DNA from: an uncultured Chloroflexia bacterium
GTDB lineage: Bacteria; Chloroflexota; Limnocylindria; Limnocylindrales; CSP1-4
Assembly: GCA_963748625.1 (NCBI GenBank)
Contig: CAVVJT010000007.1
Span: forward strand, 576,001-640,000
Length of the DNA: 64,000 nucleotides
Direction: 5' to 3'
Each line of letters opens with the position of its first letter. Positions within the stretch are counted from its first letter, which is position 1. The notes beneath the pieces are model-generated. The model was not told where the DNA came from, did not search any database, and saw only the letters and a list, made by a program, of their open reading frames with translations. This document shows positions 25,456-62,203 of this stretch, one piece after another. The position numbers and the translations under genes are program-made.

Positions 25456-25566
25456 GCCCCACGTGTGGGGCGAATCCGGACCCCGCACGCACGCGCCGGG
25501 CACGAAACCCTCACGTTCGCGCCCGGACCACGCTCACGACCCGCCGAAATGCCCCCCAGGTGGGGC
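25456..25566 (+). repeat. family-B 111-bp element, copy 1
   Basis: GCCCCAC-GT-GTGGGGC + 79-bp core (CCCGGACCACGCTCA) + GCCCCCC-AG-GTGGGGC. Confidence 0.9.
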
Positions 25567-25596
25567 AGAGTGCGCGCCCGTCACACGGCGCCGGGC

Positions 25597-27150
25597 TCAG
25601 CCGCCGCAGCAGGGCTGCTCGAAGAGGAATCGCTCCTCCCAGGTGGCGCCGTCGGGCGTGTACAGGAGTCGCCACAGGAAGTCGTCATCGTTGTCCCTGG
25701 CGACGACGAAACCGCCCGCGGGCCCAAGTACATCCGCTGCCAGCACCGCCGTGGAACGTGCAACGGGCGATGTCCAAGTGCGCCCACCATCGGCGGTCTC
25801 CAGCCACGGCCGCCCACGACTCCACAGCCAGCCGGTGCCGTCGGGCCGCAGGTCGAGGGCCGCATCCAGGCCAACCAGCGGTCCTGGCAGGGTGCTCCAG
25901 GTCACACCGCCGTCGTCCGACCTGAGCACGAGTGATGGCACCTCCACCTCGCCCTCCACGCTGACGCAGAGCATCACGATGGTGTCGCCGTTCGGGCGGG
26001 TCACCGACCGAGGGACGAAGGCGTCGTCCGGGCACCGCGCCCCATTCGTCGTCCACGCGTCGCCGCCGTCATCGGTCAGGCGGAGCTCAGGCGGCCTGTT
26101 GACCGAGCGCTTGAACAGGCCGGCGCCTGTCCGGTCATCCGCGAAGGAGAGGCTCACCGGCCAGTCCTTCCCGATCTGGGTCCACATGCCCTCGTCGTAG
26201 ACGAGGAGCCCGGGCGTGCACCCCTCGAGGCCCTCCGGGCAGGAGCGGCCGGCGTAGACGTGGCCTGGGGTCCCGGACACCACGCCCAGCGCGGACACCT
26301 CACCCAGGCCCAGGCCGGTGACCCTCCAGGTCGCGCCGCCGTCGCTGGTCATGAGCACGACCGCGTCGTCCGTCGGCGCGCGTCCGCCGACGAACCCCTC
26401 CAGCGGCCCGAACCACGCCATCGGCCCCGGGCGCACATCCGTCGGCAGGATGCGCGTGCTCGTGATGGCACCCGTGAAGTCCGATGGATCCACGGGACGA
26501 TCGAACCGGACGTCCACCGCCCACCCGACGCCCATTGCATCACACGACGGGCGGGGCGCCAGCTCGAGCGTGAAGGTCCGGCCGTCGGGCTCCAAGGTCA
26601 GCCACCCTCGCTTATCACAGGCGAACGTGACCCAGGCCAGGCGGAGGGTCCGCTCGTCAGAGCCCTGTGCGATGGCGATAGCGCTGGCGCCATCCGGCAC
26701 CTCGCCGTTTGCTGGAGCCTCGACGACATCCACGATGCCGCCCGCCTCATCGAAGGCGAACAGCTCGAACGACCCGGTCTCCACGTCGGCACCGAGGCGG
26801 AGCTGCCAGTTCCCGTAGATCTCCGGGGCCTCGCCCTCAGGTGTCTGCGACGGCGCAGGCGATGTGGTCGCGACGGCCGAGGGCGATGGCGATGCCGGGG
26901 TGGGCTCAGCCGACGCGGCCGGTGTATCCGTGGGGGCCGGGTTGGACCCTGCGATCCAGGCAGCGGACACGACGAGGAGGATGGCCCCCGCCGCAGCCAG
27001 GGCGCCCGCCGCAGGCCACCAGTGGGACCGTCGCCCGGGCCGCTCGGTCTGAAGCCGGCTGACCACGTCCGCGGCCAGTCCCGGCGGCACCGGCGCTGAG
27101 CCGAGATCGTCCAGGAAGACGTCGACCGGGTCCTGCTGCTGCCCGCTCAC
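25597..27150 (-). CDS. putative anti-sigma factor with TM helix and extracellular BNR/Asp-box domain
   Basis: Short cytoplasmic N-terminus, TM helix, repeated SDGGxTW Asp-boxes; overlaps the ECF sigma gene. Confidence 0.65.
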   Translation of the reverse strand: MSGQQQDPVDVFLDDLGSAPVPPGLAADVVSRLQTERPGRRSHWWPAAGALAAAGAILLVVSAAWIAGSNPAPTDTPAASAEPTPASPSPSAVATTSPAPSQTPEGEAPEIYGNWQLRLGADVETGSFELFAFDEAGGIVDVVEAPANGEVPDGASAIAIAQGSDERTLRLAWVTFACDKRGWLTLEPDGRTFTLELAPRPSCDAMGVGWAVDVRFDRPVDPSDFTGAITSTRILPTDVRPGPMAWFGPLEGFVGGRAPTDDAVVLMTSDGGATWRVTGLGLGEVSALGVVSGTPGHVYAGRSCPEGLEGCTPGLLVYDEGMWTQIGKDWPVSLSFADDRTGAGLFKRSVNRPPELRLTDDGGDAWTTNGARCPDDAFVPRSVTRPNGDTIVMLCVSVEGEVEVPSLVLRSDDGGVTWSTLPGPLVGLDAALDLRPDGTGWLWSRGRPWLETADGGRTWTSPVARSTAVLAADVLGPAGGFVVARDNDDDFLWRLLYTPDGATWEERFLFEQPCCGG

Positions 27151-27671
27151 GGCCGGTGCCTCCCCACGTCGCGCCGCAGCGTTTCGAGTGCGGCGTTCAA
27201 CCGGGACTTCGCGGTGCCATCGGCGATGCCCAGCGCGTCCGCCACCTCATGGATCGAGAGGCCCGCCGCGTAGTGGAGGGAGATGACCGCCCGATGGTCG
27301 TCGGCGAGCGCGCGGAAGGCCGACCCCACCAGCACCCTGGCCTCGACGGCGCCGAAATGGTCGGCGGGTTCGCGAAGGCCGTCGGCAACGGCCGGCTCCA
27401 TGGCGATCTCGCGCACGCGACCCCGCGCCCGTCCCGCGGACCGCGCCCGGTTGAGCGCGATCCGGTGCAGCCACGGTCCGAACCGGGCCGGCTCGCGGAG
27501 GCCGGGAAGCGCCTTCCAGGCGGAAGCGAAGACCTCCTGGGTGACGTCCTCCGCCGAGGCGTCGCCGACATAGGCACGGGCCAGCCGGTACACGGATGCC
27601 GTCTGCGCCGTGACCAGCTGTCCGAACGCGTCCATGTCGCCCTTCTGCGCCCGCCGAACGAGGTCGTCCAT
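27147..27671 (-). CDS. ECF RNA polymerase sigma factor
   Basis: LVRRAQKGD, AEDVTQEVF, WLHRIALN and GTAKSRL (region 2/4) motifs. Confidence 0.9.
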   Translation of the reverse strand: MDDLVRRAQKGDMDAFGQLVTAQTASVYRLARAYVGDASAEDVTQEVFASAWKALPGLREPARFGPWLHRIALNRARSAGRARGRVREIAMEPAVADGLREPADHFGAVEARVLVGSAFRALADDHRAVISLHYAAGLSIHEVADALGIADGTAKSRLNAALETLRRDVGRHRP

Positions 27672-27752
27672 CACCCCTCCACTGTTGCAGACGCCGTGGA
27701 AGGCCGAAGTGTTCGGAGACGTTCGCGGCGCTCCCGTCGTTCCCGACGCTAC

Positions 27753-27863
27753 GGCCCACGTGGGGGGCGAATCCGCGCGACTCACGCACGGACTGGGGGC
27801 GAAACCCCGACTTCCGTGCGCGGTCCACGCTCAACAGTCGCCGCAACGGCCCACACGTGGGGC
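27753..27863 (+). repeat. family-B 111-bp element, copy 2
   Basis: Same dyads and core (ACGCACGG...AAACCCCGACTT...CCACGCTCA). Confidence 0.9.
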
Positions 27864-27901
27864 AAGACGCTGGTGGCCGGCCGGCGTGGGCGAGGGCGCG
27901 G

Positions 27902-28506
27902 TCAGACGAGATCGGCGGGGGTGTCGATGTCACGCAGGGTGGCGGCGCCCGGATCGAGCGCGCGCCAGACGGGCTCGGGCACGGCGGCGGACGGGGCCGC
28001 GGCAAGCATGGCGCGCAGGCTGCGCTTCCCAAGGCCGCCGAGGATCGCGGTGCAGGCGGCGAGGACGGGTCCGACCCGCACGGCCATCGGCAGGATCGAG
28101 GGGGGATCGGCGTCGAGCGTCGCCGTGGCGAGCGCGGGGTCGGCGTCGAGCGTGGCCGCCAGCAACCCCAGGACGCCCGGCACCAGTGACGGCATATCCC
28201 CTCCGATGACGAGGGCGATCTCCGCATCGGGAGCGGCAGAGCGGAGCGCGGCCAGGCCGGCGGCAAGCCCGACGAGCGGGCCACCGAACGGCTCCGGGTC
28301 CCGGGCGATGACGAGCGGCCGCGCGCCGTCACCGGCCCAGTCCGGCACCGGGGCATCGGGTGCCAGCACGAGCACCACCGGCGAGGCGGTCGCCGCGACG
28401 GCTGCGACCGTGTGCGCGAGGACCGGACGGCCGCCAAGGTCCGCCGCAAGCTTGTCGGACCCGAAGCGGGACGACGACCCGCCGGCGAGGACGATCCCCG
28501 CGGGCC

Positions 28507-28510
<4 letters not shown>
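27902..28510 (-). CDS. mobA: molybdenum cofactor guanylyltransferase
   Basis: LAGGSSSRFGSDK, GPLVGL, GDMP and DIDTPADL motifs. Confidence 0.88.
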
Positions 28511-30402
<1,892 letters not shown>

Positions 30403-30424
30403 GCGCTCACCGATGCTGACATGC

Positions 30425-31816
30425 TCACCCGCGCCGTGCGACCTCTGCCAGGCGGCGCACGAGCACCGCGTCATCGATCCGTGCCACCGTCCGAAGGTCC
30501 ACCACCAGCTCGCCGTCCTCCACCCGAGCGAGCACCCGATCCGGGCTCTTGCGCAAGCGCGCGGCCGCCGTCGTCGCGTTCGCCACCGTCACCGCCACCC
30601 CGGCCGAGCGCAGTACCTGGCCCGGCAGCGAGCCGCCGCCGACGGGCGAGGCCAGGTCCACCACGCGCACCGCGCCGTCTGCGTCCGGCCGGGCCATCAC
30701 GACCGCGGCAACGATCGCCACCGCCCGCTCCCGCAGCTCGTCGGGAGTCCGCGCGATCGTCCGCCAGACCGGGATGTCCCGCACGGCGCGCCCGGCGCGA
30801 TACAGCCCGAGCGTCGCTGCGACCCCGGCGAGGATCGCCTTGTCGGGGCGGACCGCCCGCGCCAGCGGGTCACGCCGCATCCGCGTCACGAGGTCCCGCC
30901 GGCCCACGATCAGCCCAGCCTGAGGCCCGCCGACCAGCTTGTCGCCGCTGAACAGCACGATGTCGGCGCCCGCCGCCAGGCGCTCGGACGGCGTCGGCTC
31001 GTGGGCCAGGCCGAAGGCGGCCGTGTCGAGCAGTGCACCTGACCCCAGGTCGTCAATCACGAGGGCCCCGTGCGCCCGGGCCACCTCCGCAACGGAGGCG
31101 AGGTCCGCGCTCTCGGTGAACCCGGTCATCGCGAAGTTGGACGGGTGAACCCGCAGCACGGCGGCCGCCCGCCCGTCGGCCAGCGCCGCCTCGAAGTCCG
31201 CCGGGCGCGTCCGATTCGTCGTGCCCACCTCCACCAGGCGCGCACCCGCCCGGGCGACCATGTCGGGGATCCGCACGCCGCCGCCGATCTCCACCAGCTC
31301 GCCGCGTGAGACGGCGATCCCGGCACGGCGCCCGACCAGCCCGCAGGCCAGCAGCAGGGCGGCCGCGTTGTTCGTCACCACCAGGGCATCCTCGGCGCCG
31401 GTGAGGGCGACCAGGTGCTCCTCCGCGGCGCGGAAGCGGGCGCCGCGCCTGCCGGAGACCTCGTCCAGCTCCAGGTAGCCGTACTCGGCTGCGGCCCCCA
31501 ACGCAGCCAGGCGGGCCGCCCGCGGCCATGGGGCACGGCCGAGGTTGGTGTGCAGGACCACGCCCGTCGCGTTCACGACGTGCGGCGGCAGCGAGCCTGC
31601 GGGATCTGCGAACCCGTCAAGCCGCGCAACCACCGCGTCCGCGAGCTCATCGGCCACAAGCGCCGGCATCCCGGCGGCCAGGCGCTCGCGCTCCGCATCC
31701 ACCACGGCCCGGGCCGCCGCCGTGAGGGCGCCGGGCTCCGAGGCCTCGACCTCGCGCCGGACGAGCGCCAAGACGGCCTCGACGCTGGGTGGGTGGGGGC
31801 GGGCCTGCTGGTTCAT
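30425..31816 (-). CDS. selA: L-seryl-tRNA(Sec) selenium transferase
   Basis: [37 protein letters not shown] and [13 protein letters not shown] motifs. Confidence 0.95.
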
Positions 31817-32033
31817 GCCCGCAGCGTACAGGCGGGCCGACGCGGATGGCACGCCTGCCGGGACGACCCCTTGCCGCGGGCGCTCATGGCGGGGAGGCTC
31901 TTGGCACCCCTTTCGAGGGGCATTCCGGCACGTCGTCCCTCGCGCCCGTCCTGCCAATGTGGCGGGCACATCTGGCGGTTCCAAACGTCCGCGGCTCCAC
32001 CGACGGGCGCCACGTGGGGAAGGTCAGCCGTTG

Positions 32034-33170
32034 GTGACACCGGTCCGCGAAACGACCGCCGGCGCGGCGCGGGAGGCGGCGGACGTCCGCCTGGAGGACC
32101 TCCGCAAGCGCTTCGGCGATGTCGATGCTGTCGATGGGGTCTCGCTGGAGATCCACGCCGGCGAGTTCTTCTCGCTGCTGGGACCATCGGGCTGCGGCAA
32201 GACCACCACCCTGCGGATGATCGGCGGGTTCGAGCTCCCGACATCCGGACGGATCCTGCTGCGCGGCAAGGACATCACCAGTGCCCCGCCCGAGAAGCGG
32301 CCGGTCAACATGGTGTTCCAGAGCTACGCGCTGTTTCCGCACCTGTCGGTCTTCGAGAATGTCGCCTTCGGCCTCAAGCGGCGCCGGACCGAGGCCTCCG
32401 AGATCACCCGCCGCGTGGGGGAGGCGCTCGAGCTGGTGCGCCTCGGCGGGTTCGGGACGCGCAAGCCCGACCAGCTCTCGGGCGGCCAGCAGCAGCGCGT
32501 CGCGCTGGCCCGGGCGCTGGTCTGCGAACCCACCGTGCTCCTGCTGGACGAGCCGCTCGGCGCGCTCGACCTCAAGCTGCGCCGCCAGCTCCAGGTGGAG
32601 CTCAAACGGGTCCAGCTCGAGGTGGGCATCACGTTCATCTACGTGACCCACGACCAGGAGGAGGCCCTCGCCCTCTCCGACCGGATCGCCGTCATGAACC
32701 AGGGGCGCGTGGAGCAGCTGGGCACGCCCGAGGACCTGTACGACAACCCGAGCACCCTGTTCGTCGCGGGCTTCATCGGCTCCACCAACCTGCTGCCGGG
32801 CACGGTGGAGGCCGTCGCCGACGGGATCGCCACCGTGCTGCTCGCAGACGGCTCGCGGTGCCATGCCCGCACCACCGGGCCCGGGCCTGGCGCTGCCGTC
32901 GATGTTGCCGTGCGTCCGGAGGCCATCACGGTCGTCGGCGAACGTGACGGCACACGACCCCTGGTCGAGGCGACGGTCCTCCAGAGCGCCTACCTCGGCA
33001 CGTCCGTGAGCCACCAGGTGCGCACCACCCCCGGATCCCTGATCACCGTCCTCACACCCCGCACCGGCGAGCGGCCGGCCATCGGCGACACGGTCCACCT
33101 TGCGTGGCGCCCCGCTGATGCCCTGGCCATCGCCCGGTCCACCGGCCCCGACCAGGAGGAGTCGAAGTGA
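32034..33170 (+). CDS. potA: polyamine-type ABC ATP-binding protein
   Basis: [27 protein letters not shown] motifs; TOBE-type C-terminus. Confidence 0.85.
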
Positions 33171-34366
33171 GCGAGCTGCACCGTTCCCGTCCGCCCCGGT
33201 ACCCGCTGTCCCGCCGCGCCCTGCTGCGAGGCATGGCCGCCGGTGGCGCCGCCCTGGGGCTCGGCGCCGTGGCCGCAGCATGTGGAGGGGCTGCCGCGCC
33301 GACCGCCGCTCCGGCCACCCAGCCGCCCGCGACCGCCGGCGGCGCCACCCCGGCCCCGGGCGGCGAGGCCACCCCCGTCCCGGCGACGCCCGTCCCGGAG
33401 CCCGAGGGCGAGCTCTACATCTACAACTGGGCCGACTACATCGGCGAGGACACGATCTCGCGCTTCGAGGACGCGACGGGGATCAAGGTCACCTACGACT
33501 TCTTTGACAACATCGACACGATGCTGGCCAAGGTGGGCAACGGCAACAGCGGCTACGACGTGACGTTCCCCACCAGCATCAACGTGGGCCCGATGCAGGC
33601 GCGCAACCTCCTCGAGCCCCTGGACCACTCGCTCCTGCCCAACCTCGCGAACCTCGCGCCGGAGTGGCAGAACCCGTCCTACGACCCGGGCAACGCCATG
33701 TCCGCGCCCTACATGTGGTGGACCACGGGACTCGCCTACGACACCGAGAAGGTCGCGTCCGAGCTGACCTCCTGGGCCGCGCTCTGGGATCCCCAGTACA
33801 AGGGCAAGATGGCGATGCTCGACGACTACCGCGAGGTGTTCAGCGCCGCCCTCATCCGGCTCGGGTACGACATCAACACCGTCGACGACGGCCAGCTCGA
33901 CGAGGCGCTCGCGCTCCTCCAGGAGCAGAAGCCGCTCCTGCGCACCTACACGACCGACGACATCGGGGCGCTCTCCTCGGGCGATGTCCACGTCATGCAC
34001 GCCTGGAGCGGCGACGTCTACCAGGTGACCCCGGATCGCCCGTCCGTCGTCTACACGATCCCCACCGAGGGCGGCGTCCGGGGCTCGGACACCATGGTCA
34101 TCCTGGCCAACGCCCCCCACCCGGTTGCCGCGCACGCGTTCATCAACTTCATGCTCGACGGCGAGGTCGCCGCGGGCAACACGAACTACATCGGCTACAT
34201 GGGGCCCAACGAGGCCGCCAAGCAGTACATCGACCCGGCGATCCTGGCGGACCCGACCGTCAACCCGCCCGCCGACGTCATCGCCACGCTGGACGAGATC
34301 CTGGACCTCGGGCCGGACGAGGTGAAGTACACCGAGCGCTGGACGAAGCTCCGGGCAGGCGCGTAG
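33167..34366 (+). CDS. potD: PotD/PotF-type substrate-binding protein (Tat lipoprotein)
   Basis: SRRALL Tat motif, AAAC lipobox, YNWADYI, PYMWWTTG and AWSGD motifs. Confidence 0.82.
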   Translation: MSELHRSRPPRYPLSRRALLRGMAAGGAALGLGAVAAACGGAAAPTAAPATQPPATAGGATPAPGGEATPVPATPVPEPEGELYIYNWADYIGEDTISRFEDATGIKVTYDFFDNIDTMLAKVGNGNSGYDVTFPTSINVGPMQARNLLEPLDHSLLPNLANLAPEWQNPSYDPGNAMSAPYMWWTTGLAYDTEKVASELTSWAALWDPQYKGKMAMLDDYREVFSAALIRLGYDINTVDDGQLDEALALLQEQKPLLRTYTTDDIGALSSGDVHVMHAWSGDVYQVTPDRPSVVYTIPTEGGVRGSDTMVILANAPHPVAAHAFINFMLDGEVAAGNTNYIGYMGPNEAAKQYIDPAILADPTVNPPADVIATLDEILDLGPDEVKYTERWTKLRAGA

Positions 34367-34417
34367 CGGCGCGGCCAGGCGGCGCGGACGGCGCACGACA
34401 CGGCGGGAGGCGGCGGC

Positions 34418-35260
34418 ATGCAGCGCAGCCGGCGGGGCGACGCGGCCCTGGTGGTGCCCGGGCTCGGGTGGCTGCTGGTCTTCTTCGCCCTGCCGCTCGC
34501 GATCATCTTCGTCGTCAGCCTGGGCCAGCGTGACCAGTACGGCGGCGTCCTGTTCGACAACCTCTCCCTCCAGGCCTACCTGCGGGCGCTGGAGCCGGAC
34601 TTCCTGCCCACCGTCCTCAACTCGTTCAAGTACGCGTTCGCCACCACGGTCCTCGCGATCCTGGTGTCCTACCCGATGGCGTACTGGATCAGCCGCTACG
34701 GCGGCCGCCACAAGGCCCTGCTGCTGGTCCTCGTGATGCTGCCGTTCTGGACGAGCTGGGTCATCCGGACCTACGCGTGGATGATCCTGCTGCGCGACAA
34801 CGGCGTGGTGAACGGGGTCCTGGGCCTCGTCGGGATCGGGCCGTTCCAGATGCTGAACACGGACATGTCCGTGATCTTCGGCATGACGTACGGGTTCCTG
34901 CCCTTCACGATCCTGCCGCTGTACGTCGCCATCGACCGCGTGGACACGAACCTGGTGGCCGCCGCGCGCGACCTGTACGCGAGCGGGCGCCAGGCGTTCA
35001 TCCACGTGACGCTGCCGCTCACCAGGCCGGGCATCGTGGCCGCCGCCATCCTGACCTTCATCCCCACCCTGGGCGACTACGTGACCCCGGACCTGCTCGG
35101 CGGTGCCCAGACCACGACGGTGGCCAAGGTCATCCAGAGCCTGTTCCTCTCGTCGAAGGACTGGCCGTTCGGGGCGGCCCTAGGCTTCCTGATGATCGTG
35201 CTCACCGTCGTGGGCACCGTGGCCGGCCTGCGCTTCCTGCGCCAGGAGGTGCTGGGCTGA
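34418..35260 (+). CDS. potB: polyamine-type ABC permease
   Basis: LPFWTSWVIRTYAW and LPFTILPLY motifs; EAA-like loop. Confidence 0.82.
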   Translation: MQRSRRGDAALVVPGLGWLLVFFALPLAIIFVVSLGQRDQYGGVLFDNLSLQAYLRALEPDFLPTVLNSFKYAFATTVLAILVSYPMAYWISRYGGRHKALLLVLVMLPFWTSWVIRTYAWMILLRDNGVVNGVLGLVGIGPFQMLNTDMSVIFGMTYGFLPFTILPLYVAIDRVDTNLVAAARDLYASGRQAFIHVTLPLTRPGIVAAAILTFIPTLGDYVTPDLLGGAQTTTVAKVIQSLFLSSKDWPFGAALGFLMIVLTVVGTVAGLRFLRQEVLG

Positions 35261-36072
35261 TGCAGTCCCGCGGCTCCCCGTTCCTGCGCCTGTACGCCTG
35301 GATCGTCTACATCGTCCTGTTCGCGCCGATCGTGGTGCTGATCCTGTTCAGCTTCAACGACTCCAAGCGCAACTTCGTCTGGCGCGGCTTCACGCTCAAG
35401 TGGTACCCGACCCTGTTCGAGAACGACGCCCTGCTTGCGGCCCTCGGGGTCACGCTGCAGGTCGCGCTGATCTCGGTCGTCCTCACCACGATCATCGGGA
35501 CGCTCCTGGGGCTGGGCCTCGCCCGGCTGCGGCAGACCCGGGCATCAGGCGCTGCCGACACCCTGATCCTGCTCCCGATGGTGACACCCGAGATCGTCAT
35601 GGGCGTGAGCCTGCTGCTGTTCTTCGCGCTCGTGTTCAACGCGAACGGCTCGCTGCTCCAGATCGCGGTGTCCCACGTCGCGTTCTCGATCAGCTACGTG
35701 ACGATCGTGGTCCGCTCGAGGGCCGTATCGCTCGACCCGCGGATGGAGGAGGCCGCCCGGGACCTGGGCGCCTCGCCGATCGCGACGTTCCGGTTCGTCA
35801 CGCTGCCGCTGATCGCGCCGGCGGTCGTATCGGGGGCGATCCTCGCGTTCGCCCTCTCGTTCGACGACCTGATCATCACGTCCTTCAACGCGGGGGTCGG
35901 ATCATCCACGCTGCCGCTCTACATCTACTCCCGGATCAAGTTCGGCGTGACCCCGGAGATCAACGCGATCTCCACGATCGTGGTCGTCGCCACGACGATC
36001 GCGGTCCTCGTGGCCACGCGCACCAACGCCCGCCGCGCGCGGAGCAAGCCGCTGGAGGAGAGACCACGATGA
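35260..36072 (+). CDS. potC: polyamine-type ABC permease
   Basis: FSFN, EEAARDLGA, SFDD and GVTPEINA motifs. Confidence 0.82.
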   Translation: MQSRGSPFLRLYAWIVYIVLFAPIVVLILFSFNDSKRNFVWRGFTLKWYPTLFENDALLAALGVTLQVALISVVLTTIIGTLLGLGLARLRQTRASGAADTLILLPMVTPEIVMGVSLLLFFALVFNANGSLLQIAVSHVAFSISYVTIVVRSRAVSLDPRMEEAARDLGASPIATFRFVTLPLIAPAVVSGAILAFALSFDDLIITSFNAGVGSSTLPLYIYSRIKFGVTPEINAISTIVVVATTIAVLVATRTNARRARSKPLEERPR

Positions 36073-37671: not shown

Positions 37672-37769
37672 TGGCGGGAGCGCATGGGAGTCGAACCCAC
37701 CGCGCGACGCCGGGCGCCGCGCCGGACGGTTTTGAAGACCGCGAGGGGCACCGGCCCCTACCCGCTCCC
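37672..37769 (-). tRNA. selC: tRNA-Sec (anticodon UCA)
   Basis: 6-bp D stem with 4-nt loop, anticodon loop CTTCAAA, long variable arm, GTTCGA T-loop, G discriminator plus CCA; divergent from selD. Confidence 0.95.
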
Positions 37770-47545: not shown

Positions 47546-47586
47546 CCCGGCGCGGTTCAGGCCGTAGCCCCCCGGCCGCGCCCGAT

Positions 47587-49900: not shown

Positions 49901-50099
49901 AAACCGCCCCTTCCAGGCTCGACGCCGTCGGTATCCAGCCTCGACGCTGTCCGCATCCGAGCGCGACGCCGTCCGCCACGCGGCCGAGCGCGACACCACG
50001 CGTGCCCGGGCACGAATGCCCGAAAGGGCATGCGCGGGGGCTGGTGGCCCCACAGGTCGCGCAGTATCGTGTTGCTGCGTCCACGCGCCACGTTCGAGG

Positions 50100-51902: not shown

Positions 51903-51917
51903 GAGAGGACCACGGCG

Positions 51918-52397
51918 ATGGACTCGGCGATGACCGGCACCCAGGAGCATGACGACCGGGACCAGTCGCGCGACGAGCTCCTCGCCGTGGACGTGCCGGC
52001 GATCCTCGCCGCCGGGATCTCCGACGGCAGCGGCGCCATGCGGGGCCCCGTGCAGGGGACGGCGTCCGCTGCGGCGGCGGTCCAGCTCGGGGAGGACGGG
52101 CTCCCGGTTGAGATGCTCGGGCGGATCCTGACGATGATCCATCGCCACACCCTCGCCGCTGCCCGAGCGAACCAGGACGTGATCGTGGAGGAGCCGGCGA
52201 AGCGCGGGTTCCCGCGCGCGGCCGCCATCGTGCGGGCAGGGATCGAGGCCTGCCGGGACGATGCCGACTACGTCCTCTTCGCGCGCTGGCTCGCGAACGT
52301 GTACGGGATCCTCGCCCTGCGCGCGGCCGATCCCGCGGCCGATCCCGGGCCCGCCATCGGCGCAGCGGATGCAGACCCCGCCATGCCGGGCAGCTGA
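51918..52397 (+). CDS. hypothetical protein (possible immunity/chaperone)
   Basis: AGGAGAGG RBS directly after the effector stop; helical protein. Confidence 0.55.
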   Translation: MDSAMTGTQEHDDRDQSRDELLAVDVPAILAAGISDGSGAMRGPVQGTASAAAAVQLGEDGLPVEMLGRILTMIHRHTLAAARANQDVIVEEPAKRGFPRAAAIVRAGIEACRDDADYVLFARWLANVYGILALRAADPAADPGPAIGAADADPAMPGS

Positions 52398-52526
52398 CCG
52401 CGCCACACGGCTGACCGTGCCACAATTCGGCATCCGTCGCGCACCGTCGCGCGACTGGGATCCGGCAGCGACGTCCCGCGCCGCCCACCTCCGAGCAATG
52501 ACGACAGCGACGTAGGAGCACCACGC

Positions 52527-54245: not shown

Positions 54246-54334
54246 GCGGGGCGCCGCCACTTCTGCGCCGCGGTCAGCGGGGCGCCGCCACTTCTGCGCC
54301 GCGGTCAGCGGGGCGCCGCCACTTCTGCGCCGCG
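54246..54334 (+). repeat. 31-bp tandem repeat (~2.9 copies) abutting element B5
   Basis: GCGGGGCGCCGCCACTTCTGCGCCGCGGTCA repeated. Confidence 0.9.
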
Positions 54335-54444
54335 CCCCAGCTGGGGGGCGAAATCGCCCCGGTCACGCACGGTCTGCGTCACAAACCCCGACTTTCGCGC
54401 CCAGACCACGCTCAGGACGCGCCGAAACGGCCCCCACGGGGGGC
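54334..54444 (+). repeat. family-B 111-bp element, copy 5
   Basis: Same dyads and core. Confidence 0.92.
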
Positions 54445-56217: not shown

Positions 56218-56267
56218 CCCGAGCCCCGTTTGCCCCAGCGTGCCCGAGCCCCGTTTGCCGCAGCGTG
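56218..56267 (+). repeat. 25-bp tandem duplication abutting element B6
   Basis: CCCGAGCCCCGTTTGCC(C/G)CAGCGTG x2. Confidence 0.88.
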
Positions 56268-56377
56268 CCCCACGTCGGGGGCGAATCCGCGCTGCCCACG
56301 CACGGTCTGCGTGCCAAACCCCGACTTTCGTGCCCGGACCACGCTCCGGACGCGCCAAAATGGCCCCCACGTGGGGC
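56267..56377 (+). repeat. family-B 111-bp element, copy 6
   Basis: Same dyads and core. Confidence 0.92.
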
Positions 56378-57572: not shown

Positions 57573-58778
57573 CTAGTAGCCCCACACCTGGACACGATTG
57601 TTCTCGCGGTCCGTGACGTAGACCCGCGCGCGGTCATCTGCCGCCACGCCATTGGGGAATTCGAATTGGCCGTCGGCAATCCCTTCGACGCCGAAGTCGG
57701 CGAGGAAGATCGGCCGCAGGTCACCGCCGGAGCCGGTCCGGTAGAGGTGCACGGTGTGGCCGGTCGCGTCGACGACGTACAGGTGCCCGGTGTCGTCGAT
57801 GGCGACACCGCGCGGCAGGCCCAGGGAGCCGGCAGCCGCCCCGCGGTCAGCCCGGACAGCTCCGCGCCCGTCTCCGGGTCGAGGATCACCAGCCGGCCGC
57901 TGTTGCTGCTGGTCACGTAGGCGTGGCCCTCGGCATCGAACGCGATCATGTTGGGGAAGTCGAACTGGCCTTCACGGCCAAGCGTGCGTTTGAGCGACCC
58001 GTCGAGGCCGAACACCTCGATGCGGTGGTAGGGCGCACTGAGGTCGGTGACCCAGAGATCGCCATCGGGCCCGAAGGCGATGCCGAGCGGCTGCCAGTTC
58101 GGGATCGGCTCCGCGGGCAGGAAGCGTGCGCAGGTAGCTCCCGTCGGCGGCGTAGATGTAGATCTCGCCCGAGGAACGGTCCGTCACCCACACCTCGCCC
58201 GTGTCCGGGTGGACCGCGAGGTAGACCGGGGTGTGGCTCTTGCCGTCGGCGGGCGGCTGGAGGACCGCGACCTCGCGCCCGAGCCGGTCGAACAGCCGGG
58301 TCGTCCTGGCGCCACCGGCCTCGGTCACGTAGATGCGGTCGCCGGTCGAGTCCACGGCGACACCCATCGGCTGCTCGGCCCCGTACACGCTGTAGAGGTA
58401 GTGCGGCGGCGCATCCTCGCCGATGGGCGGCACGAGTCGTGTTGATCGGCTGGCGGAACAGCAGATACCAGGCGGTCAGGAATCCCGATCAGGAGCATGA
58501 AAGCGAGGAGCAGGAACAGCAGGATGAGGAGCCGGCGCCTGCGCTTGCGCTCCTCCTCTTCCTCGTCGAGGCCGGGGACGACGGGCGGCACGTCCGGCCC
58601 GGCGGCGGCAGCTCCGGCTGCGACGGCGGCTGCGGCTCCGGCTGCGACGGCGGCGGCTTCCGGGGCGGCGGCGGCGTCGGGCGGCGGCGGCCTCAGCGGT
58701 CGCGCCTTCGGCAGCGACGGGTGCGGAGTCCGGGGCGGCGTCCGGCTGCGGGATCGGATCGGGTTCCATGTCAGCCAT
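57573..58778 (-). CDS. membrane-anchored NHL-repeat beta-propeller protein, frameshifted
   Basis: TM segment, PMGVAVD, FDFPNMIAFD, PRGVAID; ends NNRVQVWGY. Confidence 0.75.
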
Positions 58779-59735
58779 TGCTGCTCGATGGATCAGTGCT
58801 CGGGGCGGGGCTCTCCTGCTCGCCCGCATCGGCGACGCCGAGCCGGCTGAGGCCCCAGCTGGCCGCGATGCTCTCGGGATCGAGCTCGAGCGCCTTCCGA
58901 TACCAGCCGACCGCTGCCTCCTGGTCGCCCTCGTTCTCCGCGACCAGCCCCAGGCCGACCGTCGCGTCAGCCGCAGCGGCTCCCTCGGCCAGCGGGAGGA
59001 GGAGCTCCCTGGCAGCGGCGAACTCCTTCGCGACCAGGGCGACCATGCCCCGCGCGTACTCGCGCCTGTTCGGGCTGGCCCAGGGCCTCGTAGGCATCGG
59101 CCATGGCGGCGTACGGGTCCGGCCACTCGGTGGGGATGAACGTCACGGCCTGCCGCTGCGCCTGGACCGCCTGCGCCGGCGACCCCGCACCCATCTGCGC
59201 GAGGCCCAGCTGGTACCACGACGTCGGCGTCGGTGCGATCGATGCGCACCGCGGACTCGAGGGCCGCGACGGCGTCGTCGAACCGCTCCTGCTGCACCGC
59301 GATGACGCCAAGCCCGTAGTAGGCCTGCTCAAGGTCCGCATCGACCTTCGCGAACTCGCCGTCCTTGCGCACCGTCACGATCTGCCGGTAGACCGGCTCC
59401 GCCTTGTCGAGCTCGCCGCCAAGCTGGAGGACCGTCGCCTTGCCGAGGAGCGCCGCGACGTGGTCCGGCTCGATGGCGAGCACCTCGTCGTACTGGCCGA
59501 TCGCGTCCTGGTCCCGGCCGACAGCAACGTAGGTGGCAGCCAGGTTGAGGCGCAGGACGATCTCGTCGGGGTGCTCGCGAACCGCCGCCTCCGCTTCGGC
59601 CAGCTTGCGTTCCGCGAGGGTGGGCCCCGGGTCCCGGTTCTGGTCGAGCACGTAGCCGATCACCAGGAGCGGCGTGACCACCACGATCACGAGGGCCATG
59701 AGCCTGACGAGGCGTCGGAGGGTTGTGCTCGACAT
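58771..59735 (-). CDS. TPR-repeat membrane-anchored protein, frameshifted
   Basis: N-terminal TM; TPR patterns (AYYGLG, ALELDPE). Confidence 0.75.
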
Positions 59736-59929
59736 GGGGATGGGCGTTGGGCTCTTCGTTGCTCGTTCGTTTTTCACGCTTGACCAGGCCAGCACAAGCA
59801 AGGCTGGTGGCCCGCATCCATCATGGCACCGTGGCGGGCCGGTTCCCATAGGCCGGGGGATAGAGAAGGCCGGGCGGAGAGGCCCGTGGTCCTGTATCCA
59901 CCGGCGTCCCGGGCCGGCTTCCCGCACTT

Positions 59930-60040
59930 GCCCCACCTGTGGGGCATTTCGCCACCGTCCCAGCACGGTCTGCGTCGCAAACCCCGACTTTCGCACCCGG
60001 ACCACGCTCACGACCCCCGGATTTGGCCCCCACGTGGGGC
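59930..60040 (+). repeat. family-B 111-bp element, copy 7 (arm-swapped subtype)
   Basis: Same dyads and core; about 55 bp from the 3' end of the nuclease gene. Confidence 0.92.
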
Positions 60041-60073
60041 GGACTGCGCGCTGGGAGCCGGGGCGGACCGCGC

Positions 60074-60114
60074 ACCGGGAGCCGAACCGGGAGCCTAACC
60101 GGGAGCCCAACCGG
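60074..60114 (+). repeat. 12-bp tandem repeat x3
   Basis: ACCGGGAGCCNA repeated; overlaps the nuclease stop codon. Confidence 0.8.
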
Positions 60115-60941
60115 ACCGCGACCTCTCCCCTGACCGGGCGCGCACCACCGAAGCTGCCGCCGCGTACCCCTCGTAGGCAGGCGCCCGACGACGACGGGTC
60201 AACGCGGTCCCGCGCAGCCACGATCGGTCGCGCGATGCCGGGTCGGCTGCTGCGAGACACCAGCCGGTCGGGGCAGGCGCGTCCAGCTCCGCCACCAGTC
60301 GCGCCAAAGACACCGACATCCCCCGGGAACGCGACCGCGAGCAGGTCCCGCGCGCCCGCGATCCTCGCCGCGACATCGGCCGAGTCGAGCACCACGCACA
60401 GCACCACCACCCGCCGCACCTTCCAGCCGAGCTCCTGCGCCGCCCGCCGCGCCTCCCGCACGTAGAACGAGAGGCTTCGCTGCAGCCCGCCGATATCGGG
60501 CAGGTCGGTCTTGGTCTCCTCGACGATCAGCGTCCCATCGGCCTCCCGGAAGGCAAGCAGGTCGATCCAGCCGCGTGGGCCGCCGTCGCCGATCAGCACC
60601 TCGGTCGCCACCTCCCAGCCGCCCCGGCGCAGGCGTCGCGCAACGTACCCGTTCAGCCAGGCGTGCACGGCGTCGAGCTGCCGCTCCCGATCCAGAAAGT
60701 GCCGCCCATCCAGCTCGAGCGTCGCGCGCAGCCCCAGCGCCGTGAGCAGCGACTCGACGACAAGGAGATCGAGCACCTGCGCCTGCCCGGATTCGAGGCG
60801 CCAGGTCGTCCCCTTCGACGTGCCGGCGCGCTCGGCGAGCTCCGCCTGGGACCAGCCGGCCAGGTGCCGGGCGTCGACGATGGCCTGGGCGAAGGCCGAC
60901 CTGGCGGTTGTCGTCGTGAGCGCGATGCGGGTGATGGGCAT
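60095..60941 (-). CDS. XRE HTH + PD-(D/E)XK-like nuclease fusion (frameshift near 60320)
   Basis: WSQAELAERAGTS...RLESG HTH; ATEV..GWIDLL..LIVEETKT (D...ExK); C-terminus continues in ORF 60095..60376. Confidence 0.75.
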
Positions 60942-61062
60942 GGCACCTTGATACCCGGCCGGACTCACGTAGCACTCATTTCGCACGTATCCGCCGCTTA
61001 CGGCGCCGCCCACAGAACCGCCGACAGACGCCGACGCCGCGACCGGGTAGCATCGCCAGCGC

Positions 61063-62002
61063 ATGACGAACCCGAATTCCGACGCCGAACCGAACGCCGA
61101 CGCTGACGCCGACCCCGACGCCGCACACAACCCCGACCCCGACGCTGCCCACAACCCCGGGCCCTCCCTCGAGCGCCAGGCCACCCGTACCCGCATCGTC
61201 GCGGTCCGGGGCGCACGCGTCGAGATCAGGGACGACCGCCTCGCCGGCGAGGAGCCCATGGTCATCCGCGCGGCAGGACCGGGCCAGGCAGCCCATCGAC
61301 GTCGCGGTCACCATGCGCACACCCGGCCACGAGCAGGACCTGGCGGCGGGCTTCCTCTACACCGAGGGCCTGATCACCTCCGCCGACGACATCGATGCCA
61401 TCGACACCGGCGACCCCGCCACCCGCTCGAACCCCGACGACGAGGTCCTCGTCCACCTCACGAGCCCGCTCGACACGTCGCGCATCGCCGAGCGCAACTT
61501 CGTCGCCACCGCGTCGTGCGGCATCTGCGGCAAGGCCTCACTCGATGCGGTCGAAGTCCGCTGCGACCCCCTCCCCGACGGCTTCGCGGTCGCCAGCGAG
61601 ACCATCCTCGCCCTCCCCGACCGCCTCCGTGAGGCCCAGCGCGCATTCGACGCCACCGGCGGCATCCACGCGGCGGGCCTCTTCACGGCGGCCGGCGAGC
61701 TGATCGCGATGCGCGAGGATGTCGGCCGGCACAACGCGCTTGACAAGCTCATCGGCTCGCAGCTCCTGGCTGGGCGGACCCCCCTGCACGACACGATCCT
61801 CCTGGTCAGCGGCCGGGCCGGGTTCGAGCTCGTCCAGAAGGCCGCGGTCGCCGGGATCCCGGTGATGGCCGCGGTGTCGGCGCCGAGCGACCTGGCGGTC
61901 GAACTGGCGGAGCGCCTCGGCCTCACGCTGGTCGGGTTCCTGCGGGGCGACGGCTACAACATCTACGCCCGGGCGGACCGGATCAGGATCGAAGGCGCGT
62001 AG
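61063..62002 (+). CDS. fdhD: formate dehydrogenase accessory sulfurtransferase (frameshift near 61290)
   Basis: EEP, MRTPG, SCGICG, TGGIHAA, EDVGRHNALDK and SAPS motifs. Confidence 0.92.
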
Positions 62003-62092
62003 GCCCGGGGCCGAACCGGCCGCGCCGCGCCGGCCGCGCACCCGAACCGCGCCGGCCGCGCCGACCGCCGCGTCGCCGGTTTCCCGCATGTC

Positions 62093-62203
62093 GCCCCACC
62101 TGTGGGCCAAATCCGGACCGCGCACGCACGGACTGCGTGACAAACCCGGACTTTCGCGCCCGGACCACGCTCAGGACGGTCCGAAACGGCCCCCACGTGG
62201 GGC
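62093..62203 (+). repeat. family-B 111-bp element, copy 8
   Basis: Same dyads and core. Confidence 0.92.

Follow-up and report, generated by a model that had tools for sequence, protein, structure and literature searches.

Small intergenic palindromes of the MITE-like kind form mosaic arrays, occur as partial copies and are targets of IS insertion. It is common for XRE-HTH proteins to bind palindromic operators that lie upstream of the genes encoding them, and XRE repressors of the HipB/C-protein type bind 5-N-5 palindromic operators (TATCC-N8-GGATA). In REPIN-RAYT systems (REPtrons), as outlined in the portions of the literature used here, REP doublets are accompanied by a single-copy Y1 HUH transposase that is flanked by its own REPs (PMC3116915, PMC3337134, PMC2817692, PMC3733652). 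We analysed a window of 64,000 nt (the whole stretch of DNA under study) from a 4.63-Mb genome assembly, G000, in which a first-pass annotation had noted eight similar intergenic repeats. With a probability of roughly 0.55, these repeats belong, as dispersed non-coding elements, to a REPIN/REPtron-like system that has a non-HUH partner, by which they would be mobilised.

A repeat search of the window returned the repeats, here called subfamily A, as a single family of eight copies (family D1), in register with those annotated earlier, and the lengths reported for them, 111 bp in seven and 112 bp in one, were confirmed. The first-pass annotation missed the partner gene and the other subfamilies, of which the window holds at least two copies and one degenerate copy (Table 1); its observation of eight copies stands. 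Housekeeping genes lie between most of the eight. The ends of the subfamily C copy are direct repeats (5557-5597 and 5677-5717, repeat family D6). The degenerate stretch yields two weak half-matches only to the nhmmer profile (E 0.1-0.18), and at its site a close relative, G057, holds a full copy (G057:C6:12764-12894). A 15/21-nt tandem repeat (62223-62396) is found 3' of copy 62093.

Table 1. Element copies and partner gene in the 64-kb window (window coordinates)
Feature	Position	Strand	Details
Element copy, subfamily B	1127-1257	-	dyads GACTCC-N5-GGAGTC; nhmmer 29.3 bits, covariance model R2 83.6 bits; 131-nt model match including ~10 nt of flank on each side
Element copy, subfamily C	5569-5699	-	dyad ATCC-N6-GGAT; nhmmer 22.7-22.9 bits
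Element copy, subfamily A	25456-25566	+	111 nt; dyads GCCCCAC-GT-GTGGGGC
Element copy, subfamily A	27753-27863	+	111 nt
Element copy, subfamily A	44908-45019	+	112 nt; one extra base in right dyad
Degenerate element-like stretch	47586-47705		AATTCAC-type ends, CCACGCTCG box, both noted on reading the sequence
Element copy, subfamily A	49790-49900	+	111 nt; reference copy of family D1
Element copy, subfamily A	54334-54444	+	111 nt
Element copy, subfamily A	56267-56377	+	111 nt; clearest filled site
Element copy, subfamily A	59930-60040	+	111 nt; just downstream of the minus-strand partner gene
Partner gene, XRE-HTH + PD-(D/E)XK nuclease paralogue	60135-60947	-	two frames; frameshift near 60280-60318
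Element copy, subfamily A	62093-62203	+	111 nt

An nhmmer profile built from the eight window copies and run on the 4.63-Mb assembly identified 49 subfamily A loci, and a 19-base spaced core pattern had 19 matches in the genome, all of them (19/19) inside elements. Among the 46 full-length copies, arranged in a 133-column alignment, 44 were 111 nt long, one was 112 nt and one was 110 nt, while pairwise identity averaged only 68% (range 52-97%); the fixed length is thus a stronger feature than was first claimed. The profile and covariance-model scans proposed earlier also recovered further subfamilies. A broader profile found 106 loci of all subfamilies in this 4.6-Mb genome; the 57 additional loci were assigned by eye to subfamilies B (23), C (26), D (4) and E (3), and one was A-like, while the covariance model R2 independently picked up copies of A, B, C and D. 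Subfamily A is one of at least five subfamilies that have the same architecture and differ mainly in their terminal 7-2-7 dyads. Measured with their 10-nt flanks, 55 copies taken from 14 further genomes of the genus were 131 nt long (36 copies), 130 (14), 132 (3), 133 (1) and 127 (1). Copy numbers vary widely between species. G005 shows a burst of elements: it carries 16 similar copies, of which the 13 with a length of 131 nt average 88% identity; these 13 have flanks unrelated to one another, and a dyad type that matches the elements adjoining an intact partner paralogue.

Each element has at either end the 16-bp dyad noted earlier, of the form 7-2-7 (5-bp outer arms flanking a 6-bp spacer), one end being the inverted copy of the other. 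The conserved core between them comprises two direct-repeat boxes and an A/T-marked apex. The 79-bp core had been described as asymmetric; it is largely palindromic, and the whole element is one imperfect palindrome (columns i+j = 132/133 of the 46-copy alignment) with fixed mismatches, namely A.A at 28-29/103-104, AC/CA at 46-47/85-86 and C.C at 54/78. These mismatches are either retained or switched over block by block (A.A to T.T, C.C to G.G); in copy 44908, the A/T tracts are flipped (TTT/TCT). Beyond the dyads, the terminal similarity TTCCCGCA/TGCAGGAA is present and as weak as stated, pair 5/128 being C-G in just 24 of the 46 copies. By arithmetic on the alignment, the dyad centres are 95 bp apart (9.0 helical turns) and the core boxes 42 bp (4.0 turns). 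The geometric constraint suggested earlier is therefore plausible, given this phasing and a dimer-type HTH protein that is genetically tied to the elements. An IS30-family IS is inserted in the apex of one element copy, and mosaic arrays and partial copies occur.

The dyad arms covary across subfamilies and species, and so do the left and right ends. Within dyads, 87.6% of cells are paired, with a covariation of 0.269 versus 0.157 after shuffling (0/500 shuffles as high); between left and right ends, 80.8% are paired, with 120 double-change cells versus 50.5 in shuffles and a covariation of 0.372 versus 0.180 (0/500 as high). Within one genome, no compensatory change was detected in the palindrome pairs (0.075 versus 0.094 shuffled; 498/500 shuffles equal to or above the observed value), and the stability of the interior hairpin is modest (z -3.0 and -1.2); the data therefore do not call for a hairpin intermediate. 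The ends cannot pair in the D-type copies or in one C-type copy, where they are direct repeats.

All eight window copies share one orientation, as had been claimed, and so do 10 of 10 elements in C7:601-660 kb; across the genome, however, subfamily A divides into 33 plus and 16 minus copies. Orientation has no link to GC skew, the 100-kb intervals of positive skew holding 19/33 plus and 8/16 minus copies. The view that the element is not a simple terminator was borne out: on crude gene calls, the 49 loci are convergent in 12 cases, divergent in 11 and tandem in 26, with no 3'-end preference. Presence/absence polymorphism, on which the idea of a mobile repeat had been made to depend, was seen between the close relatives G000 and G057. 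At copy 56267, the intergenic gap measures 319 bp in G000 versus 91 bp in G057, the latter too short for an element; at copy 54334, the orthologous gap is of equal length and contains an element of a different dyad type (G057:C6:8612-8735); and some copies in G057 are without counterpart in G000. Neither a target-site duplication nor a clean insertion boundary was readable at the compared filled and empty sites. Five of the eight copies are no more than 150 bp away from an edge of one of four segments that are G000-specific relative to G057: copies 25456 and 27753 are 50 bp from the left and 44 bp from the right edge of 25406-27907, copy 44908 is carried by the right edge of 44093-45050, copy 49790 by the left edge of 49645-52398, and segment 59906-61025 consists of copy 59930 and the partner gene. 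Six other G000-specific segments of at least 500 bp in the window carry no element.

The partner gene is low-copy and diverged, and occupies a syntenic place in several species. The window paralogue aligns by tblastn over residues 2-211 in frame -1 (60944-60318, 61% identity) and 224-262 in frame -2 (60280-60164), and its long ORF matches Pfam HTH_31; it is either a pseudogene or affected by an assembly error. Homologues are present in 67 of 70 genomes of the genus. Elements were found near the gene at 21 of the 30 best loci (genus-wide, ~3.8 kb each): 12 had them on both sides, 4 had them only upstream and 5 only downstream, and none was found in the ~3.8 kb of the other nine; the 30 loci hold 37 element matches versus ~2.6 expected from genome-wide density. 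Three additional partner loci likewise carry elements, and in another genus a ~110-nt palindrome with a CCACGCTGAG box is situated 3' of the partner gene. G000 has several diverged paralogues alongside its several subfamilies, and all of the close ones (4/4) adjoin an element, of types A, B, D and E; for subfamily C (26 copies), no partner gene was found in G000. The 58.6 kb around the A-type gene contain 10 of 48 subfamily A elements, where 0.6 are expected.

Dyad 18-mers on either side of one gene differ on average at 1.5 positions (16 pairs), whereas the closest pairs between loci are 6.7 positions apart (190 pairs). Judged by these sequence comparisons, dyad type is locus-specific, the elements beside each paralogue carrying their own type. 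Protein distance and dyad distance are correlated (Spearman 0.26, permutation p 0.03), a weak Mantel signal from 20 loci that are mutually related. It should be noted that the likeness of two flanking copies could stem from duplication rather than from protein recognition. At two G000 loci, 49-91 bp separate the end of the upstream element from the partner start codon; given the habit of XRE-HTH proteins of binding their own operators, part of the gene-element linkage could be plain autoregulation. Nor is bracketing by elements specific to the partner: in G000, three toxin-antitoxin modules and other small modules are bracketed too. This association does not hold up elsewhere, however, elements being seen at 0/4 vapBC homologue loci.

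The partner protein (~270 aa) joins an N-terminal XRE-type helix-turn-helix, for which HTH_3/HTH_31 pass Pfam cut-offs, to a C-terminal PD-(D/E)XK nuclease fold, in which D128, E143 and K145 (D…ExK) are invariant in 33 sequences and in 5/5 G000 paralogues. In the AF2 model (pLDDT 90.3), the C-terminal domain resembles the R2 endonuclease domain, NucS, SduA and restriction enzymes (Foldseek). It also matches XisH-like 2okf (Z 8.2), AF1548 (8.1), NucS (7.7) and Can2 (7.7), Z scores that are middling by the comparison tool's own note, and it is not a member of any Pfam, NCBIfam or PADLOC family. For the N-terminal domain, the alignment is to HipB (8ezt: Z 10.5, rmsd 2.1 A, 69 residues). A homodimer is predicted with a score of 0.49 versus 0.00 for the best control; in calibration, 20/30 solved pairs and 1/23 single chains reached the pass mark. 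The runs have at least 93% of contacts in common (pLDDT at least 84), and the predicted contacts pass through the HipB-like region. The homodimer pass may reflect likeness to solved HipB-type dimers.

Under the REPtron-like reading, a dimer of the partner protein would bind the palindromic dyad through its HTH domains. The same site would be present both in the linear duplex and, where a hairpin or cruciform is extruded, at its base, because the dyads are self-complementary and the ends are inverted copies. Two dimers on the phased ends (95 bp, ~9 turns) might then assemble into a complex, with cutting by the nuclease domain and copying or movement of the element to follow; strict element length would reflect the geometry of this complex.

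The elements could instead be operators or architectural sites: paired binding sites that ordinary recombination has dispersed and that persist for their role in regulation or DNA organisation, the protein being a regulator or nucleoid-type protein that mobilises nothing and its nuclease-like domain a sensor or oligomerisation module. An XRE/HipB-like HTH in a predicted dimer suits palindromic operators, as do elements ending shortly before a start codon; integral-turn spacing of dyads and boxes fits binding to duplex DNA, and copies within the genome keep their length while showing no structural covariation. Still, we regard this account as unlikely, since the invariant catalytic residues argue for an active nuclease, elements occur in all gene contexts with no positional rule, and the wide copy-number differences among species, the G005 burst and the filled versus empty sites between close relatives speak against it. 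Very unlikely, in our view, are cassette boundaries or recombination sites akin to integron attC, at which a site-specific recombinase inserts, excises or inverts accessory modules. No integron integrase was found (TIGR02249 gave four partial matches, 0 over cut-off, and control genomes give such matches too), GTTRRRY/RYYYAAC boxes were not seen on reading the copies, most copies are separated by housekeeping genes, and the homologues of one 'cassette' gene have elements nearby in 0/7 loci, in line with the vapBC count. The copies at segment edges would fit such sites, but the six segments that lack an element would not; also in their favour are vapBC and other 0.8-1.2 kb modules bracketed by copies, an array of four elements and three modules (C7:656750-661281), and one bracketed vapBC that is inverted in G069.

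We assign very little probability to a structured RNA (small RNA, 3'-UTR stabiliser or terminator) with the hairpin as its functional form. In its favour, the sequence is a long imperfect palindrome with GC-rich terminal stems, and cross-species covariation of the ends would fit an RNA helix as well; however, the Rfam search gave no match, in agreement with the first-pass annotation, compensatory change within the genome is absent, and some copies have direct-repeat ends that cannot pair. Divergent (promoter-side) and convergent contexts are equally common (11 versus 12 of 49), and block-wise kept or flipped mismatches are expected of DNA palindromes. The suggestion of a classical REP/REPIN-RAYT or IS200/IS605-derived PATE element, moved as ssDNA by a Y1 HUH transposase with a lagging-strand bias, fails on the enzyme: PF01797, detected in 6/14 known genomes as a control, was found in 0/6 element-bearing genomes (0/1 for G000, 98.3% complete, and 0/5 for relatives). 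Two inverted palindromic units forming a hairpin are REPIN-like, and the local co-orientation at C7:601-660 kb would suit a strand bias, yet orientation is independent of GC skew, and no conserved GTAG or CGTC tag of the kind described in the portion of PMC3733652 used here was found beside the dyads. This explanation is extremely improbable.

Compared with known systems, the elements share with ERIC/IRU (127 bp), Correia/NEMIS, RUP and BIME, as far as the cited accounts go, the form of imperfect intergenic palindromes of ~100-150 bp in both orientations (PMC3184786, PMC2759123, PMC2229807). They differ from these, sequences having been compared through Rfam, in several respects: we found no parental DDE insertion sequence that shares their ends, no target duplication was readable, the partner gene is dedicated and non-DDE, and length constancy is much stricter. 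The mosaic arrays, partial copies and IS insertion seen here are familiar from such palindromes. HipB offers a similar N-terminal fold and dimer region, and the dyads have comparable 5-bp outer arms around a 6-bp spacer; unlike HipB, which is paired with a kinase toxin, the partner carries its HTH in one chain with a nuclease-fold domain, and the sites are phased pairs inside a 111-bp repeat with ~100 genome copies. With PD-(D/E)XK nucleases of DNA mobility or rearrangement (R2, the XisH-like fdxN excision factor, NucS, Shedu SduA, Can2), the partner shares the fold and the D…ExK motif, although the Z scores are middling (7.7-8.2) and its domain lies outside the Pfam, NCBIfam and PADLOC families; we know of none of these nucleases that is tied to a REP-like repeat. 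Measured against REPIN-RAYT systems as the cited sources present them, the partner is an XRE-HTH plus PD-(D/E)XK nuclease in place of a Y1 HUH protein (PF01797 was not found), the GTAG or CGTC tag is missing, the interior is conserved and the ends are variable, and the 111-bp unit has a structured core. What these systems have in common with ours, within the same accounts, is that (i) two inverted palindromic units make up one fixed-size, hairpin-capable element; (ii) tens of copies are dispersed between genes; (iii) several subfamilies coexist in a genome, each with its own partner paralogue; and (iv) the partner gene, low-copy and diverged, is bordered by repeats of its own and is syntenic in several species.

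The eight window copies listed in the first-pass annotation were recovered as a single family (D1) in a repeat search, with 65-100% identity to the reference copy and a nearly gap-free alignment. Using an nhmmer profile built from these copies, we detected 49 subfamily-A loci in the genome under study (G000; 4.63 Mb in 10 contigs, 71% G+C, 98.3% complete), in which the window occupies C7:576001-640000. Of these loci, 46 span the full element, an insertion sequence interrupts one, and another is truncated; this count and the orientations come from the oriented seed profile, not from a strand-mixed, symmetric one. The fixed length claimed for the window copies holds across the genome: 44 of 46 copies are 111 nt long, one is 112 nt and one is 110 nt, despite a mean pairwise identity of 68% (52-97%). 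A spaced pattern of 19 core bases has 19 matches in the genome, every one of them inside an element.

Features of the repeat family and of the associated genes and segments (window, position in the 64,000-nt stretch; G000, genome under study; G005, a genome of the same genus; C, contig; L, extracted locus)
Feature	Location	Strand	Remark
Subfamily-A element	window 25456-25566
Subfamily-A element	window 27753-27863
Subfamily-A element	window 44908-45019		112 nt
Subfamily-A element	window 49790-49900
Subfamily-A element	window 54334-54444
Subfamily-A element	window 56267-56377
Subfamily-A element	window 59930-60040
Subfamily-A element	window 62093-62203
Partner-gene paralogue	window 60135-60947	-	beside copy 59930; read in two frames
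G000-specific segment	window 25406-27907		copies at both edges
G000-specific segment	window 44093-45050		element near edge
G000-specific segment	window 49645-52398		element near edge
G000-specific segment	window about 59905-61026		element near edge; equals element 59930 plus partner gene
RHH + PIN-like module	G000 C7:12176-12810		between elements
VapB + PIN module	G000 C7:659121-659815		between elements
Toxin-antitoxin-like pair	G000 C10:370776-371404		between elements
Tandem repeats beside element	window 62223-62396
Tandem repeats beside element	G000 C5:94612-
Tandem repeats beside element	G000 C7:636041-
Tandem repeats beside element	G000 C10:1111139-
Tandem repeats beside elements	G005 L080, L082, L090, L096

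The proposed arrangement of an asymmetric core between two dyads was not borne out. In the alignment of subfamily-A copies, partner columns sum to 132 or 133, and the whole element is instead one long imperfect palindrome, with the apex CCCCGAC flanked by AAA and TTT. Mismatches are retained at columns 28-29/103-104 (A.A), 46-47/85-86 (AC/CA) and 54/78 (C.C); in a minority of copies, they switch blockwise to T.T, G.G or perfect pairs, and mutual information is dominated by neighbouring columns, i.e., by block flips, which is the behaviour of DNA palindromes. The 28 best pairs within the genome are 87.5% paired, and no compensatory change was found at them (covariation 0.075 vs 0.094 in shuffled alignments, 498 of 500 shuffles being at least as high). 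Two copies folded as single-stranded DNA gave -35.6 and -30.5 kcal/mol (z of -3.0 and -1.2 compared to shuffles), with a strong stem at the element ends only. The two most conserved core boxes, C.CGCACGG (columns 41-49) and CCACGCTCAG (columns 83-92), are direct, not inverted, repeats spaced 42 nt apart, and the centres of the terminal dyads are 95 nt apart; by our own arithmetic, these distances equal 4.0 and 9.0 turns of B-DNA.

Several features were observed at individual copies. An IS30-family insertion sequence splits one subfamily-A element exactly in the apical loop (C7:657750-658997, positions 751-1998 of the extracted locus L029); it has a 392-aa ORF with HTH_38 and rve domains, inverted ends of ~23 bp, and CCCG on either side. 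Short tandem repeats with units of 13-25 nt often begin at or inside a terminal dyad and extend outward from the element (see the table), those of G005 being G-rich and GGGGATGRGGCCC-like, and the left end (dyad plus box) is also found as partial tandem copies. Two near-identical copies (C10:846975-847105 and C10:874599-874729) have the same flanks over ~45 nt to the left and ~25 nt to the right, which points to segmental duplication rather than two insertions.

According to gene calls from a crude GC3-based script, nearly all of the 49 loci fall between genes, with 12 in convergent, 11 in divergent and 26 in tandem gene contexts; thus, 3' ends are not preferred, and the earlier view that the element is not a simple terminator is supported. 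The co-orientation noted for the window copies holds regionally, all 10 elements at C7:601-660 kb pointing the same way, and does not extend to the whole genome (33 plus vs 16 minus). As to the suggested replication-strand bias, 100-kb windows with positive GC skew hold 19 of 33 plus and 8 of 16 minus copies, and, because skew is weak in this genome, the contigs are unordered, and orientation shows no relation to skew, a replication-strand rule is unsupported. A 12-nt tandem repeat (GGC/GCT-rich; window 58591-58740) falls within a long ORF of low score (58476-61265). This ORF merges element 59930 with a TPR-like gene and with the frameshifted partner gene described below, and is probably not one real gene. 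The window also contains a selenocysteine toolkit (37676-37769 and 28507-31852 on the minus strand, 61313-62002 on the plus strand) comprising genes for tRNA-Sec (Rfam match, 66.5 bits), SelB and SelA, with FdhD nearby.

A BLAST search with a single copy gave matches in 3 of 41 genomes, G000 itself included; since it was nearly blank in relatives, covariance and profile models were needed. A covariance model built from 46 copies (R1) found full-length matches of 130-131 nt, a length that includes ~10 nt of flank on each side of the 111-nt unit, in at least 13 of 69 further genomes from the genus; at most 48 candidates were scored in each genome, the counts being lower bounds. Element lengths in relatives are 131 nt (36 copies), 130 nt (14), 132 nt (3), 133 nt (1) and 127 nt (1). 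These copies retain the core boxes and differ in their terminal dyads, which include GACTCAC/GTGAGTC, GATCCAC/GTGGATC, GACCCAG/CTGGGTC, GGCAC../..GTGCC and others. A profile made from all of these copies identified 106 loci in G000, and the 57 new ones were assigned to subfamilies by eye: 23 copies to B (dyad GACTCC-N5-GGAGTC), 26 to C (ATCC-N6-GGAT), 4 to D (GAGTCAC-N4-GCATC) and 3 to E (GCCCCAA..TGGGGC), the remaining one being A-like with the dyad of subfamily A. Two of them, at 1127-1257 and 5569-5699, are inside the window. Copies of types A, B, C and D were also retrieved independently by a second covariance model (R2).

In an alignment of 46 diverse copies, the dyad arms covary (87.6% of cells paired; 0.269 vs 0.157 shuffled; none of 500 shuffles as high), and so do the left and right ends including the 6-nt spacer (80.8% paired; covariation 0.372 vs 0.180; none of 500), with 120 cells changed on both sides vs 50.5 in shuffles. 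Given that kin sequences can beat shuffles without any structure, we take the end covariation to mean that the element ends are inverted copies of one palindromic site, and not to prove a hairpin. In D-type copies (positions 11750-11879 and 16152-16281 of the extracted locus L118), the terminal ~18-40 nt are direct rather than inverted repeats, and the same is true of the ends of the C-type copy in the window (5557-5597 and 5677-5717), so that an end-to-end hairpin is impossible there.

Inspection of the contents between closely spaced copies revealed toxin-antitoxin modules (see the table) plus a 272-aa protein, hereafter the partner protein. It is encoded at five loci in G000 (tblastn), three of which are within 300 bp of an element, and a profile search returned four close paralogues plus distant ones. 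The two reading frames of the paralogue in the window imply either a frameshift or an assembly error. Homologues are present in 67 of 70 genomes of the genus, with 1-9 matches each. We searched the best 30 loci by nhmmer, each comprising the gene and ~1.5 kb on either side, and found elements at 21 of them (both sides, 12; upstream only, 4; downstream only, 5); the 37 element hits at these 30 loci compare to ~2.6 predicted from the genome-wide density. Elements also occur at three further partner loci, including the fourth close G000 paralogue with its E-type element, and an inverted-repeat search at one locus from a different genus of this family found a palindrome of ~110 nt with a CCACGCTGAG box after the partner gene. 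Conversely, elements are absent from all four loci with vapBC homologues and from all seven loci with homologues of gene 44116-44880, which indicates that the linkage is specific to the partner gene. Distant partner homologues from other families of the class had elements at 0 of 10 loci in the nhmmer search.

The association extends to the sequence of the element ends. Across 16 pairs, the dyads flanking one gene differ at a mean of 1.5 of 18 positions, and the closest dyad pairs from different loci differ at 6.7 of 18 (190 pairs); protein and dyad distances correlate weakly (Spearman 0.26, permutation p 0.03, for 20 non-independent loci). The four close paralogues of G000 adjoin A, B, D and E elements, respectively, and subfamily C has no partner gene in this genome. 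The B-type paralogue, at C10:1357579-1358397, is intact. The D-type unit is syntenic in G000 and G069, another genome of the genus.

The three toxin-antitoxin modules are each bracketed by two elements ~0.8 kb apart (C7:11978-13021, C7:658935-659996 and C10:370610-371666). The two copies around the RHH + PIN-like module are more alike than random pairs, and the G069 homologue of the VapB + PIN module, which lacks elements, is inverted with respect to its neighbours. An array at C7:656750-662184 (L118:11750-17184) contains, in order, a D element, a gene for a 223-aa membrane protein, an A element (with the IS30 insertion), vapBC, another A element, genes for a Rieske protein and a 129-aa protein, a D element, and the partner gene.

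The partner protein matches Pfam only by HTH_3/HTH_31 at residues ~20-75 (HTH_3 at 30.1 and 34.4 bits vs a cut-off of 23); by sequence, its N-terminal domain is classified above the curated cut-off as an XRE-family HTH. Nothing in Pfam, NCBIfam or PADLOC matched the C-terminal domain, and the hits of a sequence search against PDB were confined to the HTH domain. Residues D128, E143 and K145, within GWID…VEETK, are invariant in 33 aligned homologues and conserved in each of the five G000 paralogues. Confidence in the AlphaFold2 model is high (mean pLDDT 90.3, pTM 0.75); its N-terminal domain aligns structurally with repressors of the HipB and C-protein kinds (Z up to 10.5), and residues ~92-246 match PD-(D/E)XK nucleases by Foldseek, namely the R2 retrotransposon endonuclease domain, NucS, SduA and type II restriction enzymes. 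In VIA-align, the C-terminal matches were the XisH-like excision factor 2okf (Z 8.2, 120 residues aligned), AF1548 (Z 8.1), NucS (Z 7.7) and Can2 (Z 7.7); these scores are middling, and the motif therefore carries much of the weight for the nuclease assignment. As modelled, the C-terminal domain combines the core fold with the D…(D/E)xK motif and is assigned to the PD-(D/E)XK nucleases. A homodimer is also predicted (0.49 vs 0.00 for the best control; in the calibration, the pass mark was reached by 20 of the 30 solved pairs and by 1 of the 23 single chains), with at least 93% of contacts common to the runs, pLDDT of at least 84, and an interface made up of the HTH domain and a strand spanning residues 69-83; since HipB-type dimers have been solved, this result may merely reflect that likeness.

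That the repeats should differ in presence between relatives was confirmed by comparison with the closest genome, G057, whose contig C6 is colinear with the window at 78-90% identity. Copy 56267 lies in a 319-bp gap in G000 that measures 91 bp in G057, a genuine difference between a filled and an empty site. G057 also carries copies at C6:24137-24267, along with ~1.8 kb of additional DNA by the tRNA-Sec site, and at C6:12764-12894, where the corresponding G000 site holds only a degenerate remnant; at the site of copy 54334, both genomes have an element, with unlike dyad types. Five of the eight window copies are within 150 bp of the edges of four segments that are specific to G000 compared to G057 (see the table), and six other such segments of at least 500 bp in the window have no element. 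The latter include 8734-10741, 21620-23727, 31946-36033 and 42410-43452, and one of them is a 4.1-kb block of four genes (32031-36072). No target-site duplications are readable at the filled and empty sites of these two genomes, the boundaries being too diverged because the intergenic DNA does not align. The place taken in G000 by element 59930 and the partner gene is occupied in G057 by an unrelated inverted repeat of 19 bp whose loop measures 17 nt (GATGACCGTATGGGCATCA…; C6:3273-3486, extracted locus L106).

Of 151 genomes sampled from the phylum, nine (G000 counted) are matched by the partner protein profile, all from one class, and there was no match in the other families sampled among these 151; the source names of homologues point to Candidatus Limnocylindrales (Chloroflexota). 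Under strict filters and with at most 83 candidates scored per genome, R2 detected elements in at least 2 of 12 further genomes from the family and, among the matches scored, in none of 28 genomes belonging to the other families of the class.

In several species, a low-copy, diverged partner gene occupies a syntenic site with palindromic repeats of its own on its flanks, and the same repeat types also populate intergenic DNA. By analogy, these data fit the logic of REPINs and their RAYT enzymes, with several enzyme-repeat pairs in one genome. We propose that the elements may be long-lived intragenomic replicators of a previously undescribed class, i.e., REPIN-like 111-bp hairpin elements moved or copied by a dedicated HTH-PD-(D/E)XK nuclease and not by an HUH transposase, each paralogue having co-evolved with the dyad of its own subfamily, and, among the genomes searched, confined to one Limnocylindria-type family of Chloroflexota; we assign this reading a tentative probability of about 0.4. 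An HTH dimer would read the 7-2-7 dyad, two phased sites per element would assemble a defined complex, and the nuclease domain would do the cutting. In the main rival explanation, the protein would bind the elements without moving them, the elements being paired operators or architectural sites. The signs of activity come from two cases and are suggestive at best. In G005, there are 16 copies of one type, 13 of them of 131 nt at 88% mean identity (82-96%), with flanks unrelated to one another and with the dyad type of the elements by an intact paralogue (on contig C26). In G000, subfamily A has the lower identity given above and a frameshifted neighbouring partner gene, and is old; 10 of 48 subfamily-A elements lie within 58.6 kb around the A-type gene, where 0.6 are expected.

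The readings of the elements as RNAs, cassette boundaries, or classical REP or PATE repeats each failed at least one direct test. In accord with the initial impression that the repeat resembles no recognised family, the elements have no match in Rfam, the window giving only tRNA-Sec at gathering scores; with an E-value threshold, the sole match of copy 49790 is hya, at 16 bits vs 56.8. The Y1 HUH transposase profile PF01797 has no match in G000 or in five element-bearing relatives, and the control search was positive in 6 of 14 known genomes. An IS200/IS605 PATE is disfavoured by orientation (33 plus, 16 minus), for which a tie to the replication strand found no support in the GC-skew windows. 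As to a MITE of a DDE insertion sequence, the sole insertion sequence seen at a copy is of the IS30 family, and its ends are unrelated to the dyads; none with ends like those of the elements was encountered. For an integron attC-type cassette, the integrase model TIGR02249 gave four partial matches in G000 (best 83 bits vs a cut-off of 265), similar partial matches occur in all 14 control genomes, and the homologues of gene 44116-44880 and of vapBC are found without the element.

In the part of the literature that was covered, we found no PD-(D/E)XK/HTH protein tied to REP-like repeats and nothing on repeats in Limnocylindria. We regard the repeat itself as an object of a common kind; what we rate as new is its partner enzyme, the specificity of the ends for each paralogue, and the exact geometry of 111 bp. 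To our knowledge, REP/REPIN sequences with RAYT are the only well-described non-autonomous bacterial repeats that have long been maintained by a single-copy, vertically inherited enzyme. If the proposed replicator reading is correct, a REPIN-like lifestyle evolved more than once, the second time with an unrelated HTH plus restriction-endonuclease-like enzyme; there would be a new DNA-recognition and cleavage module, with specificity that is readable because paralogue and dyad come in pairs; and part of the variability of intergenic DNA and gene content would be explained in an abundant, uncultured lineage of soil and freshwater. If the elements are paired operator sites instead, the strict 111-bp spacing would make them a clean model for phased protein-DNA assemblies.

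Like REPINs, these elements consist of two inverted palindromic units that are able to form one hairpin. REPs carry a GTAG or CGTC tag, as described in the part of PMC3733652 on which this comparison draws; compared to that description, the tag has no counterpart here, the columns flanking the dyad being 30-55% conserved with no fixed tetranucleotide. The partner of the REP/REPIN system is a Y1 HUH enzyme, whereas that of the present elements is predicted to be an HTH-PD-(D/E)XK nuclease. Thus, the low-copy, vertically inherited gene with its own repeats that characterizes REP/REPIN-RAYT is matched here by analogy only, with a different protein.
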